From a virus, in the UHGV virus genome UHGV-0154878: 15,016 nucleotides of DNA. One strand, given 5' to 3'. Position 1 is the first letter of the stretch. Every line of letters starts with the position of its first letter. Below the pieces are notes generated by a model. That model was not told the DNA's origin. It was given only the letters and a program-made list of their open reading frames with translations, and made no database searches. Both the position numbers and the translations under genes were made by a program. This document shows positions 212-11,314 of the stretch, piece after piece.

Positions 212-928
212 TCAAACCAGCCTTAGTTTTGTCTCAATTGCAACGCCTATAATCTTGCAGTTTCCATTGATTGGCACGAGAGGCCATGCAGGGTTAAGTC
301 CCTTGAGGTATTTATTTCCGCCGTCGATTATCAGCTTCTTGAATGTTGCTTCGTTAGAGTCAGAAAGTTTTGCTATGACCAAGCTGCCGTTGATCGCCTC
401 CCTTCCGGTATCGAAAAGAACGAATGTTCCCTCTGGAATGCTTAACCCAACCGGTGCCGTCATTGAATCACCTTCCACTTTAAGCCAGAACGCATTACCT
501 TGAATATGCGCGTCAGACTCAAGCCAAACATCTATGTCTTTAATGGTGTATGGTTCGCATGCTTCACACCACGAGCCAGCCTGGATACTGCTTAACACCG
601 GATACCTCTTTCCTGCTCTGTATTCCCCTGCATACCTTACGTTGGCATCGCTCTTAAGGCTTTCTGCCTGTTCTGCAACCTTGGCAGCAATTGACTGGCT
701 AAAATCAGCAATTGAGACTTGCAACAATCGTGCAAAACCAGATGCAACCTCAACGTTTAGCGCATTTCTGCCATTAAGATAATGCCCTACCGCTCCTTGG
801 GTGATACCCAGTTCATCAGCGATTGAGTATTGGGTTATTCCCAATTCTTTCTTTTTTGACTCATACAAAGCCTTAAGCCGCTTAGCGTCTTCGAGCTGTT
901 CTGTCGTCAGTGATTTTTTATTTTCCAT
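212..928 (-). CDS. cI: CI-type prophage repressor (N-terminal HTH, C-terminal S24/LexA-like autocleavage domain)
   Basis: The 238-aa ORF aligns by eye with lambda CI along its length (LTxEQLEDAxRLKAxYExKKxELG...; FWLxVEGxSMTAP; ATFKKLIxD). It is divergent from the cro-like gene across a roughly 100-bp operator region. Confidence 0.93.
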   Translation of the reverse strand: MENKKSLTTEQLEDAKRLKALYESKKKELGITQYSIADELGITQGAVGHYLNGRNALNVEVASGFARLLQVSIADFSQSIAAKVAEQAESLKSDANVRYAGEYRAGKRYPVLSSIQAGSWCEACEPYTIKDIDVWLESDAHIQGNAFWLKVEGDSMTAPVGLSIPEGTFVLFDTGREAINGSLVIAKLSDSNEATFKKLIIDGGNKYLKGLNPAWPLVPINGNCKIIGVAIETKLRLV

Positions 929-1797: not shown

Positions 1798-2689
1798 CAT
1801 ATCTAATCTAGCCGAAGCCAGAGAGGCCAGAAGGCTACAACAACCGCATCAAAGCAGCGGTAAGGGGTATGCCTTGCTGCACCGTAAAATTATGGATGTG
1901 CCGTTTTACAAGGACGCAGAAGCTGCGCATCTGTGGGTTCACTTAATCCTCAAAGCAAAGCATACGCCTGAGTATGTAATGACTGACGCAGGAGAAATTC
2001 TGGTAGGCAGAGGGAAGCTACTTGGCGGTAGAAACTCTCTGGCGTTTGAAACAGGACTCAAACCAGATCGCGTTCAGTACCTGCTTAGAAAGTTCAAAAA
2101 ACTCGGCATGATTGACTGGGTTTCACACGGTAAATTCTCAGTTTTCTCGGTAGAGAAATATGACGATTATCAGTCAAATTTTGTACCAGCAGATTACCAG
2201 CAAATTACCACCTCAAAGCCAGCAATACCAATGCCTGCAAGCAATACTGTACCAGCAGATTACCAGCAAATTACCACAGATAAAGAATATAATAATATTA
2301 TCTCTAATACTGACGTATTAGAGAGTACCGTAGCAGACAAAAAGTCTGACAAGAAAAAACCTTCCGTCAGCTGTCAGGATGTTGTCGATGCTTACCACGA
2401 AATCCTTCCTGAAGCGCCAAGAATCCGCGCACTGAATGACAAGCGTAAAAACCAGATCCGAACGTTCTGGCGCAAAGCCGGAGTGATAACCCGCCAGCTT
2501 GACGGGCATGGGTTCACGATGCAGGACTGGAGAAATTATTTGAGCTACGTTGGCGAAAATTGCCGATGGATGTTCGAAGAGCGCCCAAACCATCAACGCG
2601 GAACCGTCTGGCACAAAAAGGGATTTGATTTCCTGCTTAACGATAATACCTACCTGAAAGTTCGTGAGGGTGAACACGATGACCGATAA
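1790..2689 (+). CDS. Replication initiation protein, lambda O / P22 gp18-like, with the origin embedded in the coding sequence
   Basis: Strong AAGGAGAAAGG Shine-Dalgarno. It sits immediately after cII and before a DnaB-family helicase. Direct DNA repeats (iterons) plus an AT-rich tract lie inside the gene and produce the duplicated peptide [10 protein letters not shown]. Confidence 0.75.
2182..2310 (+). repeat. Candidate origin of replication: iterons (two copies of a 30-bp unit, each containing ACCAGCARATT sub-repeats) followed by an AT-rich tract
   Basis: TGTACCAGCAGATTACCAGCAAATTACCAC occurs at 2182-2211 and again at 2248-2277, 66 bp apart. The AT-rich AGATAAAGAATATAATAATATTATCTCTAATACTG follows at 2278-2310. 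This is the same architecture as ori-lambda inside gene O. Confidence 0.65.
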
Positions 2690-4115
2690 TTTTTATGCGC
2701 CGCCCCATAGCATCGAGGCAGAGCAGGCGGTGATTGGTGGATTGCTTCTGGATGATGACAGCAGTGAGCGCGTCCAGAAAGTTCTGGCGATGCTGAAGCC
2801 TGATTCATTTTACAGCCGACCACACAAAATCCTTTTCGAAGAAATAACCAGAATGCACCGGGAGCAAAAGCCAGTAGATGGCCTGACGCTTTTCGATGAA
2901 CTGGAGCGTAAATCGTTAACGGCGTCTGTTGGCGGTTTTGCTTATATCGCTGAGATCGCAAAGAACACGCCAAGCGCAGCAAACATCGTTGCCTATGCAA
3001 TGCAGGTTCGTGAAACCGCAATGGAACGCTACGCCATCAACCGCATGACTGAAGCGACGGAATTGCTCTATTCCCGCAACGGAATGACTGCAACGCAGAA
3101 GTACGAAGCTATTCAGGCGATTTTCACGCAACTGACAGACCATGCAAAAACCGGATCGCGTCGCGGCCTTCGCTCATTTGGTGAGGTCATGGAAGACTGG
3201 GTTAGCGACCTTGAGAAGCGATTTGACCCGTCAGGCGAACAACGAGGAATGAGCACAGGGATCCCATCGCTGGACAGGATGCTGTCACCGAAAGGTCTGG
3301 TGAAAGGCTCTCTGTTTGTCATTGGCGCTCGCCCTAAGATGGGGAAAACGACGCTATACAGCCAGATGGCAATCAACTGCGCAGTGCATGAGAAAAAGCC
3401 CGCTCTGATGTTCAGCCTTGAAATGCCAGGTGATCAGATACTGGAAAAACTGGTAGGGCAGAAGTCTGGTGTTAACCCGAATATTTTTTACCTTCCGGCG
3501 ACAAATGACGCTGATGACGGCTATCAGGGTGATTACGATGGTGACTTCAACAGGGCGATCGAAACAGCCAATCGCTTGAGTGAAATCGACCTGCTTTACA
3601 TCGACGACACGCCGGGATTATCTCTGGCTCAAATCGTCAGCGAAAGCCGTCGAATCAAGCGAGAAAAAGGATGTGTTGGCATGATTCTGGTCGATTACCT
3701 GACACTAATGACCGCTGAGAAGGCCGATCGCAACGACCTTGCTTACGGCATGATCACCAAAGGACTGAAGAACCTTGCCAAAGAGCTTGATTGCGTTGTT
3801 GTGCTTCTGACACAGCTTAACCGCGCACTGGAAAGCCGAACCAATAAACGCCCATTACCAAGTGACTCGCGAGATACAGGGCAGATTGAACAGGATTGCG
3901 ATTATTGGGTCGGGATCCATCGTGAAGGTGCTTTTGATGACAGCGTTCCTCCTGGTGAAACCGAACTAATCCTTCGTCTCAATCGTCATGGCAATACCGG
4001 CACGGTGTATTGCATTCAGGCAAATGGCGCTATTTATGACACAGACCAACAGTCTGCTGAAATGCGCCGACGTGAACGCGAGGAACCGCAGTCCAAGAAG
4101 AAAGGAGGATTCTGA
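2679..4115 (+). CDS. Replicative DNA helicase, DnaB family (P22 gp12-like)
   Basis: DnaB N-terminal domain (SIEAEQAVIGGLLLD...). Walker A GARPKMGKTT. RecA-like C-terminal region. GAGGG Shine-Dalgarno before ATG 2679, which overlaps the upstream stop. Confidence 0.9.
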   Translation: MTDNFYAPPHSIEAEQAVIGGLLLDDDSSERVQKVLAMLKPDSFYSRPHKILFEEITRMHREQKPVDGLTLFDELERKSLTASVGGFAYIAEIAKNTPSAANIVAYAMQVRETAMERYAINRMTEATELLYSRNGMTATQKYEAIQAIFTQLTDHAKTGSRRGLRSFGEVMEDWVSDLEKRFDPSGEQRGMSTGIPSLDRMLSPKGLVKGSLFVIGARPKMGKTTLYSQMAINCAVHEKKPALMFSLEMPGDQILEKLVGQKSGVNPNIFYLPATNDADDGYQGDYDGDFNRAIETANRLSEIDLLYIDDTPGLSLAQIVSESRRIKREKGCVGMILVDYLTLMTAEKADRNDLAYGMITKGLKNLAKELDCVVVLLTQLNRALESRTNKRPLPSDSRDTGQIEQDCDYWVGIHREGAFDDSVPPGETELILRLNRHGNTGTVYCIQANGAIYDTDQQSAEMRRREREEPQSKKKGGF

Positions 4116-4384
4116 TGAATAAAAAACAATTAGCCATTCTCGAAAAGGCATGGGATGCGCAAATATCATACGCTTTGAAAGAACAGGCACTACCAATAAT
4201 CCAGACCAAATCGAAAATAGCCAGGCAGTTATGCGATGGCGGATTCCTGAACGAAGTTGAGATTACGCGCCAGATGGTAACGTTCAAAGGGTATGAGATA
4301 AATCATCATGGTATAGCGGCGTATTGCTCCCATCTTCCTGATGACGTTGACATTGATGAAGTGGAAAGGGAGATGAAGCAATGA
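4115..4384 (+). CDS. Hypothetical protein (89 aa) in the ren position
   Basis: ATGA overlap with the helicase stop suggests translational coupling. No recognisable motif. Confidence 0.5.
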   Translation: MNKKQLAILEKAWDAQISYALKEQALPIIQTKSKIARQLCDGGFLNEVEITRQMVTFKGYEINHHGIAAYCSHLPDDVDIDEVEREMKQ

Positions 4385-4409: not shown

Positions 4410-4441
4410 AGGCCTGCTGGTAATCGCAGGCCTTTTTATTT
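4410..4441 (+). terminator. Intrinsic terminator (tR2-like)
   Basis: Perfect 8-bp GC-rich stem AGGCCTGC-tggtaatc-GCAGGCCT followed by TTTTTATTT, located where lambda carries tR2 between the replication and nin genes. Confidence 0.7.
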
Positions 4442-4456: not shown

Positions 4457-4783
4457 GTGGCTGACTGGCAAATTCCAATCATCATTCTTGCCGGAGCTTC
4501 GCTGGTTGCTGGCTTTATCCTGCTGAAGAAGCATAAAGACCGTGATCAAAAAGTCGAAGTTCTCTATGGGTATCCAGCGAACTGCACAACATGGCTGACC
4601 ATTTACCACTACCGAAAATCAGGCCGTTGGGTATTCGAATGGGATGATCTGTTTGCTGAAAAGCGACCAAAGTCATGGGGAGACATCAGCGAATGCATGA
4701 TGTTTGAAGAAAGAAAATCCGGCGCAACTCGAGAAGAGTTTAACGAAGCGTGGAGGCGATTAAGTGAGAGAGGGTATCAATGA
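4457..4783 (+). CDS. Hypothetical protein with an N-terminal transmembrane helix (108 aa; GTG start)
   Basis: GGGAGAGGGAAG Shine-Dalgarno upstream of GTG 4457. Hydrophobic N-terminus IPIIILAGASLVAGFILL followed by a charged soluble domain. Confidence 0.55.
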   Translation: MADWQIPIIILAGASLVAGFILLKKHKDRDQKVEVLYGYPANCTTWLTIYHYRKSGRWVFEWDDLFAEKRPKSWGDISECMMFEERKSGATREEFNEAWRRLSERGYQ

Positions 4784-4805: not shown

Positions 4806-5252
4806 ATGAGGCAAATATACATGCTTCGCAACGAAGCAATCAGAAACAACGCCATAGACGCAATACACTCACTTCCGATCGACGACAAGTCACCCCACGA
4901 AGTCCACATTAAAGAACCAAAGCGGAGCAATCCTCAAAACCGCCTTATGTGGGCGTTATTGCAGGACGTATCGCGTCAGGTGCTCTGGCATGGAGAGAGA
5001 CTTGCGCCGGAGGACTGGAAAGATCTGTTCACTGCCCTGTGGCTTAAGACCAAAAAACTGGAGCAACGAAGTGCGCCTGGTATCGACGGTGGCGTTGTTA
5101 TGCTTGGCGTGCGTACCAGCAAAATGCGAAAGGCCAGCATGACTGAGCTTATCGAAATCATGTTCTGGTTCGGCTCAGAGCGCAACGTGCGGTGGAGTGA
5201 TGACTCCCGGCGAGAGTATGAATGGTCACAACGAAAAGGGAAGGCTGCATGA
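4806..5252 (+). CDS. ninB: NinB/Orf-family recombination protein
   Basis: Resembles lambda NinB (QNRxLWAxLxDVSRQVxWHG...WKxxFTA...RxVRWSD). ATG 4821 is an alternative start. Confidence 0.75.
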   Translation: MRQIYMLRNEAIRNNAIDAIHSLPIDDKSPHEVHIKEPKRSNPQNRLMWALLQDVSRQVLWHGERLAPEDWKDLFTALWLKTKKLEQRSAPGIDGGVVMLGVRTSKMRKASMTELIEIMFWFGSERNVRWSDDSRREYEWSQRKGKAA

Positions 5253-5776
5253 CTATCAAATCAAATACGCCAGCACACGACAAGGACTGCTGGCAAACGC
5301 CGCTCTGGCTTTTTGATGCGCTGGATATTGAGTTTGGATTCTGGCTGGATTCAGCTGCGAGCGACAAAAACGCTCTGTGCGCTCACTGGCTAACTGAGGC
5401 TGACGACGCGCTAAATTCTGAGTGGATAAGCCACGGTGCAATCTGGAATAACCCACCGTACAGCAATATCAGGCCGTGGGTGGAAAAAGCCGCTGAGCAG
5501 TGCATACAACAGCGACAGACGGTAGTGATGCTTGTGCCAGAGGATATGTCAGTCGGATGGTTCAGCAAGGCTCTGGAGAGTGTCGACGAAGTTCGCATTA
5601 TCACTGATGGACGGATTAATTTTATCGAACCATCGACAGGGCTGGAGAAGAAGGGAAACAGCAAAGGCTCCATGCTGCTGATTTGGCGACCGTTCATCAG
5701 TCCTCGACGGATGTTTACTACCGTATCCAAAGCGGCATTGATGGCGATCGGGCAGGGCGTCAGGAGGGCGGCATGA
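5249..5776 (+). CDS. Phage Dam-family DNA N6-adenine methyltransferase (orphan)
   Basis: Motifs DxWQTPxWLFDALDxEFGF and NPPYS (the catalytic D/N-PP-Y/F motif). ATGA overlap with the ninB stop. No adjacent restriction endonuclease. Confidence 0.8.
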
Positions 5777-5955
5777 GACGACAGCGACGAAGTATCACCG
5801 ACATCATCTGCGAAAACTGCAAATACCTTCCAACGAAACGCTCCAGAAATAAACGCAAGCCAATCCCAAAAGAATCTGACGTAAAAACCTTCAACTACAC
5901 GGCTCACCTGTGGGATATCCGGTGGCTTAGAGAACGTGCGAGGAAAACAAGGTGA
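5773..5955 (+). CDS. ninE: NinE-like small protein (60 aa)
   Basis: [60 protein letters not shown] matches my recollection of lambda NinE. ATGA overlap with the upstream stop. Confidence 0.6.
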
Positions 5956-6122
5956 TTGACCCAAATCGAAGTTACGAACAAGAAAGCGTCGAGCGGGCTT
6001 TAACGTGCGCTAACTGCGGTCAGAAGCTGCATGTGCTGGAAGTTCACGTGTGCTCCGATTGCTGCGCAGAACTGATGAGCGATCCGAATAGCTCAATGTA
6101 CGAGGAAGAAGACGATGAATGA
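5952..6122 (+). CDS. ninF: NinF-like small Cys-rich protein (56 aa; GTG start)
   Basis: Hand-translated [56 protein letters not shown] resembles lambda NinF. GTGA overlap with the ninE stop. Below the ORF-track size cut-off. Confidence 0.6.
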
Positions 6123-6837
6123 GTTAATAAATGGCAATGCCATCAAAATGACAAGCATTGAAATCGCTGAGTTGGTGGGTAAGCGTCATGACAATGTGAA
6201 ACGTACCATCGAAACGCTGGCTAAAAATGGTGTTATCCGGCTTCCTCAAATTGAGGTTTCCGAAAGAATCAATAACTTAGGGTTCAATGTTCAGTACGAG
6301 CATTACGTCTTCGAAGGCGAACAAGGTAAGCGAGATAGTATTGTTGTTGTTGCCCAGTTGTCGCCAGAGTTCACCGCTCGCCTTGTTGACCGCTGGCGAG
6401 AGCTTGAAGAAGCTGCGGTTAATATCCCCAAAACGCTACCGGAAGCGTTGCGCCTTGCTGCTGATCTTGCTGAGCAGAAAATGCAACTGGAAAACCAGCT
6501 CGCAATTGCCGCACCTAAAGTTGAGTTTGCCGATCGCGTTGGCGAGGCCAGCGGAATTTTGATTGGAAACTTTGCAAAGGTTGTTGGTATTGGTCCAAAC
6601 AAACTGTTTGCGTGGATGCGCGATCACAAAATCCTTATTGCTTCAGGTTCCCGGCGCAATGTGCCAATGCAGGAATATATGGATCGCGGCTATTTCACAG
6701 TGAAAGAAACAGCGGTCAACACAAATCACGGAATACAGATATCGTTCACCACAAAAATCACCGGGCGTGGTCAACAGTGGCTGACCAGAAAGCTGCTCGA
6801 TAACGGAATGCTGAAAGTAACAGGGGAGGCTGCTTAA
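6115..6837 (+). CDS. Phage antirepressor, Rha-family N-terminal domain with KilAC/ANT C-terminal domain
   Basis: N-terminus IEIAELVGKRHDNVKRTIETL is typical of the Rha family. The C-terminus (KLFAWMRDHKIL...EYMDRGYF) is typical of KilAC antirepressor domains. Confidence 0.75.
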   Translation: MNELINGNAIKMTSIEIAELVGKRHDNVKRTIETLAKNGVIRLPQIEVSERINNLGFNVQYEHYVFEGEQGKRDSIVVVAQLSPEFTARLVDRWRELEEAAVNIPKTLPEALRLAADLAEQKMQLENQLAIAAPKVEFADRVGEASGILIGNFAKVVGIGPNKLFAWMRDHKILIASGSRRNVPMQEYMDRGYFTVKETAVNTNHGIQISFTTKITGRGQQWLTRKLLDNGMLKVTGEAA

Positions 6838-7486: not shown

Positions 7487-7671
7487 ACGCCACAATTCAA
7501 ACGATACCAGAGCTTCTTATCCAGACACGAGGCAATCAGACCGAAGTGGCGAGGATGCTTTCCTGCGCAAGAGGAACAGTGCTCAAGTACAACCGAGACA
7601 GCAAAGGCGAGCGTCACGTAATAGTTAACGGCGTCCTGATGGTCAAACAGGGCAAGAGGGGAAGACGATGA
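7483..7671 (+). CDS. ninH: NinH-like protein
   Basis: TIPExLxxxxGNQTEVARxLxCxRGTVxKYxxDxxGxxHxIVNxVLMV matches lambda NinH. Confidence 0.75.
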   Translation: MNATIQTIPELLIQTRGNQTEVARMLSCARGTVLKYNRDSKGERHVIVNGVLMVKQGKRGRR

Positions 7672-8156
7672 GCATAAGAGAACTAAACCTCACCAAAGAG
7701 CAGCACGAGTGGCTGAATGGCTGGCTTGAACTGTGGGGCGCATGGGTTTATTCAGGTCGTCTGGAAAAGCGCATGAGCAGCGTAATAGCGAAGTTCATGG
7801 AGAGCGTAGAGCCGGGAAGAGTTATGACAAGGCCAATGTGCAATGATGATGATGGAATGTTGATTTCTCAGGTCGTCGATTCCGTCATGTACATTGACAA
7901 GAAAGCCTTTGGCATCCTCCTCAGCTACTACGCTCATGGATCTTCCAAGCATGCCATTGCATCTTACTATCATCGCGTCGCAAGACCTCGCAAGATGTTA
8001 TGCCGGGGCGGCGGGCGTATTCAAAAACCATCGCTCGCAACCTGTCGCCGGGAAGTTGACGAAATCCTCAATGCTTCGTTGTTTATGATTTACCCGGTTC
8101 TGGATAGTGCGTTTAAAAACCGGAAACGTGTAGAGAAAATTAAACATGTAGCATAG
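7668..8156 (+). CDS. Q: Late-gene antitermination protein Q (QuuD/Q82-like family)
   Basis: Motifs LELWGAWV and RPMCNDDDGMLI resemble QuuD-type Q proteins. It is the last gene of the nin region and sits immediately upstream of a promoter-like element, tRNA genes and the lysis cassette. Confidence 0.8.
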   Translation: MSIRELNLTKEQHEWLNGWLELWGAWVYSGRLEKRMSSVIAKFMESVEPGRVMTRPMCNDDDGMLISQVVDSVMYIDKKAFGILLSYYAHGSSKHAIASYYHRVARPRKMLCRGGGRIQKPSLATCRREVDEILNASLFMIYPVLDSAFKNRKRVEKIKHVA

Positions 8157-8247: not shown

Positions 8248-8322
8248 GGGTCAGTCGTATAAAGGTCATTACGGAAGGCTGTTAACCTTCTTATCGTGGT
8301 TCGAGTCCACGCTGTCCCGCCA
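8248..8322 (+). tRNA. tRNA with anticodon GTT (Asn), non-canonical (one acceptor-stem mismatch, short D-stem)
   Basis: Hand-folded cloverleaf. Anticodon arm GAAGG-cTGTTaa-CCTTC. T-arm CGTGG-TTCGAGT-CCACG. Acceptor GGGTCAG/CTGTCCC has a T-T mismatch at position 4:69. Discriminator G, then encoded CCA. Confidence 0.6.
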
Positions 8323-8327
8323 AATAT

Positions 8328-8403
8328 GCTGGTTTAGCTCCAATGGTAGAGCGGTCGCCTTGTAAGCGAATGGGTAGCGGTTCAAGTCCGTTAACCAGCA
8401 CCA
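8328..8403 (+). tRNA. tRNA with anticodon TGT (Thr)
   Basis: Perfect 7-bp acceptor stem GCTGGTT/AACCAGC. D-arm GCTC-caatGGta-GAGC. Anticodon loop cTTGTaa. T-arm AGCGG-TTCAAGT-CCGTT. Discriminator A, then encoded CCA. Confidence 0.75.
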
Positions 8404-8645: not shown

Positions 8646-8969
8646 ATGAAGATGCCAGAAAAACATGACCTGTTAGCCGCCATTCTCGCGGCAAAGGAAC
8701 AAGGCATCGGGGCAATCCTTGCGTTTGCAATGGCGTACCTTCGCGGCAGATATAATGGCGGTGCGTTTACAAAAACAGTAATCGACGCAACGATGTGCGC
8801 CATTATCGCCTGGTTCATTCGTGACCTTCTCGACTTCGCCGGACTAAGTAGCAATCTCGCTTATATAACGAGCGTGTTCATCGGCTACATCGGTACTGAC
8901 TCGATTGGTTCGCTTATCAAACGCTTCGCTGCTAAAAAAGCCGGAGTAGAAGATGGTGGAAATCAATAA
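8646..8969 (+). CDS. S: Class I holin, lambda S type, with dual-start motif (Met1-Lys2-Met3)
   Basis: The 107-aa product is almost identical to lambda S as I recall it ([39 protein letters not shown]...). The MKM N-terminus corresponds to the S107 antiholin and S105 holin starts. Confidence 0.95.
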
Positions 8970-10134: not shown

Positions 10135-10188
10135 CATTACAGAAGCCCTTCACTGAGGGGCTTCGATAATGGAGCACTGGAATTATTC

Positions 10189-10809
10189 ATGAACAGACCA
10201 CACCCACCAGCGCATTTTACGATGCCACCTGACCCGAAGCCGTACATCAGCATTATGCCCGCTAATGACGTTGGCGAGTGGCTGAATCAGCACATCCTGA
10301 GCGATGAGGGTGACCTCTACAACCCTGACCACCAGCATTTGCTTGAAGCGGATCTGTGCTTTCTCTGGGCGTCGAACGCTTTCGAGAAGAAAGGGCGTTC
10401 CGTGCTGGGGCAGGCGGAAGAAGTGGCAATGCGTGCCGGAGGCTGGCAGAAAGCGCGGATGGAGCAGCAGATGTATGAATGGTTCGGCAGGGTGCCGCAG
10501 TTCATCATCACGCTGGCCGCTGATTACTGCTCGCAATGTTCCGATCTGGAATTCTGCGCGCTGATAGAGCACGAGCTTTATCACATTTGCCAGGCGACAG
10601 ATGAATTTGGCGCGCCGAAGTTCACGCAGGAAGGGCAGCCAAAGCTGAAGCTGCGCGGCCATGACGTGGAAGAGTTTGTGGGCGTGGTTCGCCGTTACGG
10701 TGCGAGCCGGGACGTGCAGGAAATGATTGATGCGGCGAATCAGCCAGCGGAGGTTGCTCATCTCGATATTGCCAGAGCGTGCGGGACGTGCATGCTGCGA
10801 CTGGCTTAA
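10189..10809 (+). CDS. Putative zinc metallopeptidase-like protein (HExxH motif), possibly of the phage 'putative peptidase' family
   Basis: EHELYH motif in a 206-aa ORF co-oriented with all flanking late genes. The overlapping - strand ORF (10183-10878) has antisense-type composition. Family assignment is from memory and unverified. Confidence 0.5.
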   Translation: MNRPHPPAHFTMPPDPKPYISIMPANDVGEWLNQHILSDEGDLYNPDHQHLLEADLCFLWASNAFEKKGRSVLGQAEEVAMRAGGWQKARMEQQMYEWFGRVPQFIITLAADYCSQCSDLEFCALIEHELYHICQATDEFGAPKFTQEGQPKLKLRGHDVEEFVGVVRRYGASRDVQEMIDAANQPAEVAHLDIARACGTCMLRLA

Positions 10810-10840
10810 ATACTGGACTGTATAAGACGAATGGTGATTT

Positions 10841-11314
10841 ATGGCTGCATTAAAACCTGATGTGAAAGCCTTCATCATTCAGTCGCTTGCGTGCTATGAC
10901 ACGCCATCGCAGGTGGTCGAGGCTGTCCAAAAAGAATTCGGGATCAAGATCACCCGCCAGCAGGCTGAATCTCACGACCCCACGAAGGCCAGCGGTAAGA
11001 CGCTCGCCAAAAAGTGGATCGAGATGTTCCACGCGACGCGCGAACGGTTCCTGACCGAAACCAGCGACATTCCGATCGCGAACAAATCCTATCGCCTCCG
11101 CGTGCTTGACCGCATGGCAACCAAAACCGAGGGGATGAAAAACTTCTCCCTGACGGCGCAGCTGATTGAACAGGCCGCGAAAGAGGTTGGCGACGCTTAC
11201 ACCAATAAGCTGAAGGTTGAGAGCACTGGCAAGGATGGCGGCCCGATCAAGACCGAGACGACCAACCTCACCGCAGATCAGGCCGCAGAGATTTACCGCA
11301 AGATGATGGGGTGA
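10841..11314 (+). CDS. Putative terminase small subunit (DUF2280-like)
   Basis: 157-aa ORF immediately upstream of the large terminase subunit, with an overlapping stop. The N-terminal region looks like a DNA-binding domain. Assignment is by position and weak recollection. Confidence 0.5.

Follow-up and report, generated by a model that had tools for sequence, protein, structure and literature searches.

A solitary, apparently intact Dam-family adenine methyltransferase, predicted to be GATC-specific, in the nin region of a lambdoid phage

Results

The dam gene and its junctions

In this work we have analysed a stretch of 15,016 nucleotides of the virus genome UHGV-0154878, which we call the window. 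Its plus strand carries at 5249-5776 an open reading frame of 175 amino acids, here named dam, coding for a phage N6-adenine DNA methyltransferase (PF05869 / TIGR01712) of predicted GATC specificity. The ORF list and the sequence itself agree with the initial annotation on these coordinates, and also on the coupling of the gene to ninB upstream and ninE downstream, both junctions reading ATGA. At 5249-5252 (plus strand) the ninB stop (TGA, 5250-5252) overlaps the dam start (ATG, 5249-5251), and at 5773-5776 (plus strand) the dam stop (TGA, 5774-5776) overlaps the ninE start (ATG, 5773-5775). A Shine-Dalgarno-like AAGGGAAGG lies at 5236-5244 on the plus strand, in the 3' end of ninB and 4 nt before the dam ATG, and another Shine-Dalgarno-like element, the AGGAGG purine run at 5762-5767, precedes the start of ninE. 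An alternative dam start at the in-frame ATG at 5222, which would give a protein of 184 amino acids, was rejected on the N-termini and annotated lengths of the homologues: those from several genera are 175 amino acids long and start at the position of 'MT(I/L)KSNTP', which favours 5249. The ATGA coupling is not peculiar to dam, as other junctions of this nin region overlap likewise, with 4-nt overlaps starting at ATG between ybcO and rusA, rusA and ninH, and ninH and Q, and one starting at GTG between ninE and ninF; ATGA junctions are described as general in lambdoid nin regions (PMC8022706).

Three minus-strand ORFs run across dam (5383-5964, 5256-5456 and 5158-5367). They gave no family match, and we treated them as chance ORFs and not as genes. 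The one at 5383-5964, of 193 amino acids, covers most of dam and all of ninE, its best hit being HIV Tat with an E value of 0.027, and is probably due to chance.

The surrounding genes

The window spans early, lysis and packaging genes of lambdoid type, in a mosaic nearest to HK620 and mEpX2, and its best E. coli match spans 82% of it. It begins with a cI-type repressor gene (212-928, minus strand), followed by cro (1029-1229), cII (1251-1616), the O-like initiator gene O (1790-2689) and a gene for a DnaB-like helicase (2664-4115, plus strand). The helicase gene overlaps the O-like gene and stands in the replication 'P' position, and its product bears the DnaB N- and C-terminal domains and is not a loader of the lambda P type. 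Two small plus-strand ORFs of unknown function come next (4115-4384 and 4457-4783), with full-length matches to phrog_2239 and phrog_5903 and no match to a Pfam family. Between them, at 4410-4433 on the plus strand, there is a strong terminator-like hairpin of 8 pairs, 6 of them G-C, and then TTTTATTT; the hairpin is upstream of the nin genes and, by analogy with lambda, may occupy the position of tR2.

The neighbours of dam are ninB (4806-5252, plus strand), which codes for the Orf recombination mediator (PF05772, E 2e-48), ninE (5773-5955, plus strand; PF05322, E 3e-43), ninF downstream of ninE, the gene for a Rha/KilAC antirepressor (Roi/Ant, 6115-6837) and, between the antirepressor and the Q antiterminator (7668-8156), ybcO, rusA and ninH. 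Genes for tRNA-Asn (GTT; 8248-8322) and tRNA-Thr (TGT; 8328-8403), both on the plus strand, are followed by a holin (8646-8969) and then, in this order, by an endolysin, spanins and a metallopeptidase-like ORF (10189-10809, plus strand; PF18894, E 2e-43), after which come a DUF2280 small terminase, TerL and the portal. A minus-strand ORF of 231 amino acids (10183-10878) mirrors the metallopeptidase-like gene. It matched no family, and it is probably a spurious ORF. In VT2-Sakai the slot between Q and holin holds tRNAs and then stx2; in the window it holds the two tRNAs and no toxin genes.

Between ninB and ninE, lambda (L006:1582-2624) has ninC, a PAPS-reductase-like gene, and ninD, where the window has dam. 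The slot has the look of a site at which alternative cassettes, dam among them, are exchanged. The related E. coli prophage H114 has a gene with a PAPS-reductase domain somewhere under its match to the window.

Family membership and conserved motifs

The product of dam, hereafter Dam, matches the Pfam family PF05869, 'DNA N-6-adenine-methyltransferase (Dam)', over profile positions 1-167 of 169 (E 8.3e-65; 218 bits against a cut-off of 28.1), the NCBIfam equivalog TIGR01712 (phage_N6A_met) over positions 1-165 of 165 (264.2 bits, cut-off 97.05) and phrog_111, 'DNA methyltransferase', with an E value of 9e-88; its best PADLOC matches are the 'orphan methyltransferase' (oMTase) models. By these scores the family signal is far beyond chance. 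The Dam-family motifs proposed from the sequence alone, NPPYS included, are thus present. NPPYS corresponds to residues N68-P69-P70-Y71-S72 (5450-5464, plus strand), the catalytic motif IV (NPPY) of amino-methyltransferases, and a six-frame scan of the 15-kb window found no other (D/N/S)PP(Y/F/W/H) motif among ORFs of at least 80 amino acids. Upstream of it are WQTP (W15-Q16-T17-P18; 5291-5302, plus strand), the N-terminal 'TP' motif, which we label as motif X-like by comparison with M.TaqI-type enzymes, and LDSAAS (L33-D34-S35-A36-A37-S38; 5345-5362, plus strand), a motif I-like segment with a putative function in AdoMet binding. In Dam, a small single-domain protein within the size range of about 170 to 240 amino acids that goes with the family, both the WxTP and the LDxxA segments precede motif IV.

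We aligned Dam with 30 homologues from Escherichia, Pectobacterium, Edwardsiella, Providencia, Yersinia, Serratia, Photorhabdus and others, down to 60% identity. T17, P18, D34, A36, N68-S72 and a block of C-terminal residues are invariant in this alignment; a loss of catalytic residues from Dam, named in the initial annotation as a refuting result, was looked for in it, and none is lost. N68, P69, P70, Y71, S72, D34, T17 and P18 are also invariant in the Dam enzymes of phages T1 and HP1, as are L33, D34 and A37 of the AdoMet-binding segment, while W15, T17 and P18 are invariant among Dam, VT2-Sakai orf32, T1 Dam and HP1 Dam. T1 Dam (ST20, 237 aa) and HP1 Dam (Haemophilus phage HP1 orf13, 173 aa) belong to the same family, PF05869, with 33% and 35% identity, respectively, to the enzyme described here. 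They share with it the WxTP, LDxxA and NPPYS motifs, and the C-terminal half is conserved as well. T1 Dam has in addition an N-terminal extension of 45 residues and an insertion of 14 residues that are absent here. Taken at the level of sequence, an AdoMet-dependent N6-adenine DNA methyltransferase of the T1/HP1/VT2 Dam family, with its active site intact, is strongly supported.

A methyltransferase without a nuclease partner

The absence of a restriction endonuclease partner, claimed in the initial annotation, was borne out both in the scanned ORFs of the window and at the loci of distant homologues. None of the other window ORFs that were scanned matched a restriction-enzyme family, a PADLOC scan of nine of them gave no match, and no nuclease partner lies beside the homologues in Yersinia, Providencia and Pectobacterium prophages. 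The position of these homologues also varies: the Yersinia gene is in the early-left region near int, the Providencia gene is between the replication genes and Q, and the Pectobacterium gene is upstream of ninF and ninG, in no case with an adjoining NinB. The genes for T1 and HP1 Dam are, like dam, solitary early-region genes, although with other neighbours and without NinB. Since distant homologues have neither NinB nor a nuclease as a constant neighbour, Dam travels, and presumably works, alone. An obligate NinB-Dam complex, which the ATGA coupling could suggest, was rejected because this adjacency is absent for T1, HP1, Yersinia, Providencia and Pectobacterium, and it is further weakened by the generic nature of such coupling in nin regions (PMC8022706).

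About 1 kb downstream of the Providencia dam homologues, in the same operon direction, there is a Lar restriction-alleviation gene (PF14354; L011:4448-4633 and L012:4258-4443), a possible hint of an anti-restriction neighbourhood.

Target sequence

Dam is identical at 174 of 175 residues to orf32 of phage VT2-Sakai (BAA84315 / NP_050531), which is equally long and also lies between ninB and ninE; the single difference is I60 here for V60 in VT2-Sakai. The two loci differ in that dam lies here in an HK620/mEpX2-like early region, in a window without stx genes. PMC6602927 gives GATC as the target of M.EcoVT2Dam of VT2-Sakai, and PMC7139368 names VT-2 as one of the phages for which a dam-like activity has been demonstrated; both cite Radlinska & Bujnicki 2001. 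M.EcoVT2Dam comes without a stated accession and must, by elimination, be orf32, because orf32 is the sole VT2-Sakai ORF of at least 80 amino acids with an amino-methyltransferase motif IV in a six-frame scan of the whole phage, and the only methylase annotated in that genome. VT2-Sakai orf4 (299 aa) was considered as a second methylase and rejected, its only match being DUF551.

The near-identity to an enzyme reported to act on GATC allows the same target to be predicted for Dam, which we regard as highly probable; this prediction rests on a difference of one residue (I60 against V60) from M.EcoVT2Dam. The earlier statement that the target cannot be read from the sequence thus holds for a de novo reading, but not once orf32 is brought into the comparison. 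M.EcoGIX, with SAY specificity, was rejected as a relative, being plasmid-borne and single-strand-specific. The original reports on the T1 and HP1 enzymes are cited in PMC7139368 and PMC7556043.

Fold and relation to the host Dam

An AF2 model built on a 30-sequence alignment reached a moderate confidence, with a mean pLDDT of 73.7 and a pTM of 0.76; residues 35-52 (window positions 5351-5404), directly after the AdoMet-binding segment, have a pLDDT below 50. Only 33 residues separate the AdoMet-binding segment from NPPY, and the beta2/beta3 elements usual for the methyltransferase fold are absent from the prediction. A Foldseek search of the model against PDB chains returned no match at E <= 0.001, and a sequence search of the PDB found no relative (best E 0.18, to an unrelated SdiA chain) and no solved structure for any member of the family. 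With moderate confidence, the predicted fold is closest to the M.TaqI-like / HsdM-type N6-adenine methyltransferases, whereas E. coli Dam, T4 Dam and DpnM reach a score of only 5.3-5.8 against the model; the structures compared are 2-3 times larger than Dam, and the alignments are limited to their catalytic domains (128-140 residues). Together with the order of the motifs (TP, AdoMet segment, NPPY), the structure comparison indicates that Dam may consist of a minimal catalytic core of the M.TaqI-like kind, with no target-recognition domain separate from it.

Dam is not a homologue of the host Dam. In the Pfam scan PF05869 was the sole family matched, with no match to the host-Dam family PF02086. 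In comparison with the alpha-class enzymes of that family (E. coli Dam, T4 Dam and DpnM), it is about 100 residues shorter and lacks the target-recognition domain that host-type Dams have between the AdoMet-binding and catalytic motifs. Among phage enzymes, only the T2 and T4 Dams are homologous to cellular Dam (PMC7139368).

Distribution

At a nucleotide identity of at least 95%, dam is present in 244 phage records, mostly of Stx1- and Stx2-converting phages but also of 434, HK97-type, mEp, SfI and lambda-like isolates. At the same identity it is carried by 1566 of the 5426 complete E. coli genomes (about 29%), with up to five copies per genome. The RefSeq label in E. coli is 'phage N-6-adenine-methyltransferase', with NinB and NinE flanking it. 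The protein of phage Nil2 is 100% identical, and identical or near-identical copies occur in Phi24B, 933W-type Stx phages, HK97, 434 and SfI as well; for the Phi24B dam gene (528 bp), 100% identity to NP_050531 of VT2-Sakai is given at the protein level (PMC3342100). The closest relatives have Enterobacterales as hosts, and members of PF05869 are common among virulent T1-like phages that infect Escherichia and Klebsiella. Some phages, such as Stx2a_F349, carry pseudogene copies of dam.

Five database proteins (P0001, P0005, P0011, P0013 and P0023) are fusions of Dam with NinE, CII, RusA or NinB domains, P0001 being a protein of 233 amino acids with 41 member sequences. These entries may be frameshifts or gene-calling errors.

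Discussion

Our results support the reading of this gene, made at first from the sequence alone, as an orphan Dam-type adenine methyltransferase, which was essentially right. We propose that Dam is an intact, solitary AdoMet-dependent DNA N6-adenine methyltransferase, most likely acting on the adenine of GATC and with a role linked to replication, a reading to which we assign a probability of about 0.88. The gene itself is already known, very common and routinely annotated in phages, and its specificity has been reported previously.

We propose that dam is translated as one link of the overlapped nin chain in the early rightward operon. By analogy with lambda, its product would appear in lytic growth or on induction, once antitermination carries transcription beyond the hairpin at 4410-4433, but would not be made while the prophage is repressed, since the hairpin stands upstream of the nin genes and implies an expression dependent on antitermination. 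Consistent with this, dam of phage Phi24B was detected as expressed, and its expression changed significantly on prophage induction (PMC3342100). Once made, the phage enzyme would add GATC-methylating capacity when phage replication outruns the host Dam, so that the replicating and packaged genomes would be fully methylated at GATC. Full methylation could in turn protect this DNA from enzymes that cut unmethylated GATC, and allow it to escape host Dam-dependent systems acting on hemimethylated or unmethylated DNA. In lambda and P22, which have no dam gene, virion DNA is reported to be under-methylated at Dam sites, with replication outstripping modification (PMC8022706). Substrate sites would be plentiful, as the window holds 59 GATC sites for 68 +/- 7 expected, an ordinary density with neither avoidance nor enrichment of GATC in the window. 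We consider such a top-up of GATC methylation on fast-replicating phage DNA to be the most likely role of Dam. The host carries a Dam of its own, and what a lambdoid phage would gain from a second GATC methylase is therefore not obvious; the function of phage Dam enzymes in general is not well understood (PMC7556043).

Could the main role lie elsewhere? Dam might serve chiefly as a cross-host anti-restriction device: GATC methylated in advance would shield the incoming genome from MboI/DpnII-type enzymes where a host or strain has no Dam or has a GATC-cutting system. The abundance of GATC sites in the phage, the spread of the family among virulent T1-like phages of Escherichia and Klebsiella and the Lar gene about 1 kb downstream of the Providencia homologues (L011, L012) all fit such a role. 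Against it, the closest relatives come from hosts among the Enterobacterales, which carry Dam, and systems that cut unmethylated GATC would be self-toxic in such hosts; we regard this role as possible but rather unlikely. Somewhat more doubtful is a mainly regulatory function, in which GATC methylation at phage or host promoters would tune the stability of lysogeny or induction. Host Dam is reported to be needed for stable lysogeny of the Stx2 phage 933W (Murphy et al. 2008, as summarized in PMC3342100), and the authors of the Phi24B study suggested that the phage enzyme could supplement host Dam (PMC3342100). In the phage studied here, however, dam belongs to a repressed early-right operon, behind the hairpin at 4410-4433, and a stable lysogen should therefore express it only weakly, and the Phi24B signal came from lysogen cultures containing spontaneously induced cells and was altered on induction (PMC3342100). 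We also think it distinctly unlikely that the enzyme reads GATC in an unusual manner, for instance as a dimer or through loops of the core for which there is no counterpart in solved structures, or that it has a second substrate or a role in controlling prophage induction; if true, this would be a mechanistic novelty in an otherwise well-known gene.

A prophage enzyme of another kind bears on the question of the substrate. Stx prophages also encode solitary methyltransferases of the MT-A70 type, such as M.EcoGV and M.EcoPA8orf6770P (phiPA8), which likewise bear the annotation of GATC adenine methylase. One Stx-prophage 'GATC DNA adenine methylase' described in 2023 showed hardly any activity on DNA by itself. 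It needs the PNB-2 partner, encoded by the gene directly upstream; with this partner bound its preferred substrate was 16S rRNA, and it controls spontaneous induction as well (PMC10810198). By this precedent Dam could be active but have a main substrate other than duplex GATC, be it adenine with relaxed specificity, single-stranded DNA or RNA, possibly with a partner; the lack of a target-recognition domain, the coupling to the DNA-binding neighbour NinB and the very relaxed specificity reported for some prophage methyltransferases (PMC7556043) would agree with it. The rRNA enzyme is nevertheless not the product of dam, nor of its family: it belongs to MT-A70, has DPPW in place of NPPY, and is encoded near int, co-transcribed with its partner (PMC10810198). 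Dam has NPPY, no MT-A70 Pfam match and an upstream neighbour that varies among homologues, so what is known of the MT-A70 enzyme does not apply to an NPPY-type PF05869 protein. Moreover, M.EcoVT2Dam, one residue away, is reported as GATC-specific (PMC6602927, PMC7139368), and an obligate partner is hard to reconcile with the absence of NinB beside the homologues in Yersinia, Providencia and Pectobacterium and beside T1 and HP1 dam. A substrate other than duplex GATC thus appears very improbable, and the MT-A70 case stands as a warning that annotation is no proof of substrate. We give almost no weight to the idea that dam is half of a restriction-modification system with its nuclease outside the window, or else a decayed, inactive remnant. 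The window is only about 15 kb of the prophage, and pseudogene copies exist in phages such as Stx2a_F349, but the ORF is full-length with all invariant residues kept, its best PADLOC matches are orphan-methylase models, dam-carrying phage genomes such as VT2-Sakai list no restriction enzyme, and the gene is kept at an identity of at least 95% in 1566 E. coli genomes.

In methylome studies of E. coli, prophage copies of dam may add to GATC methylation once induction has taken place.
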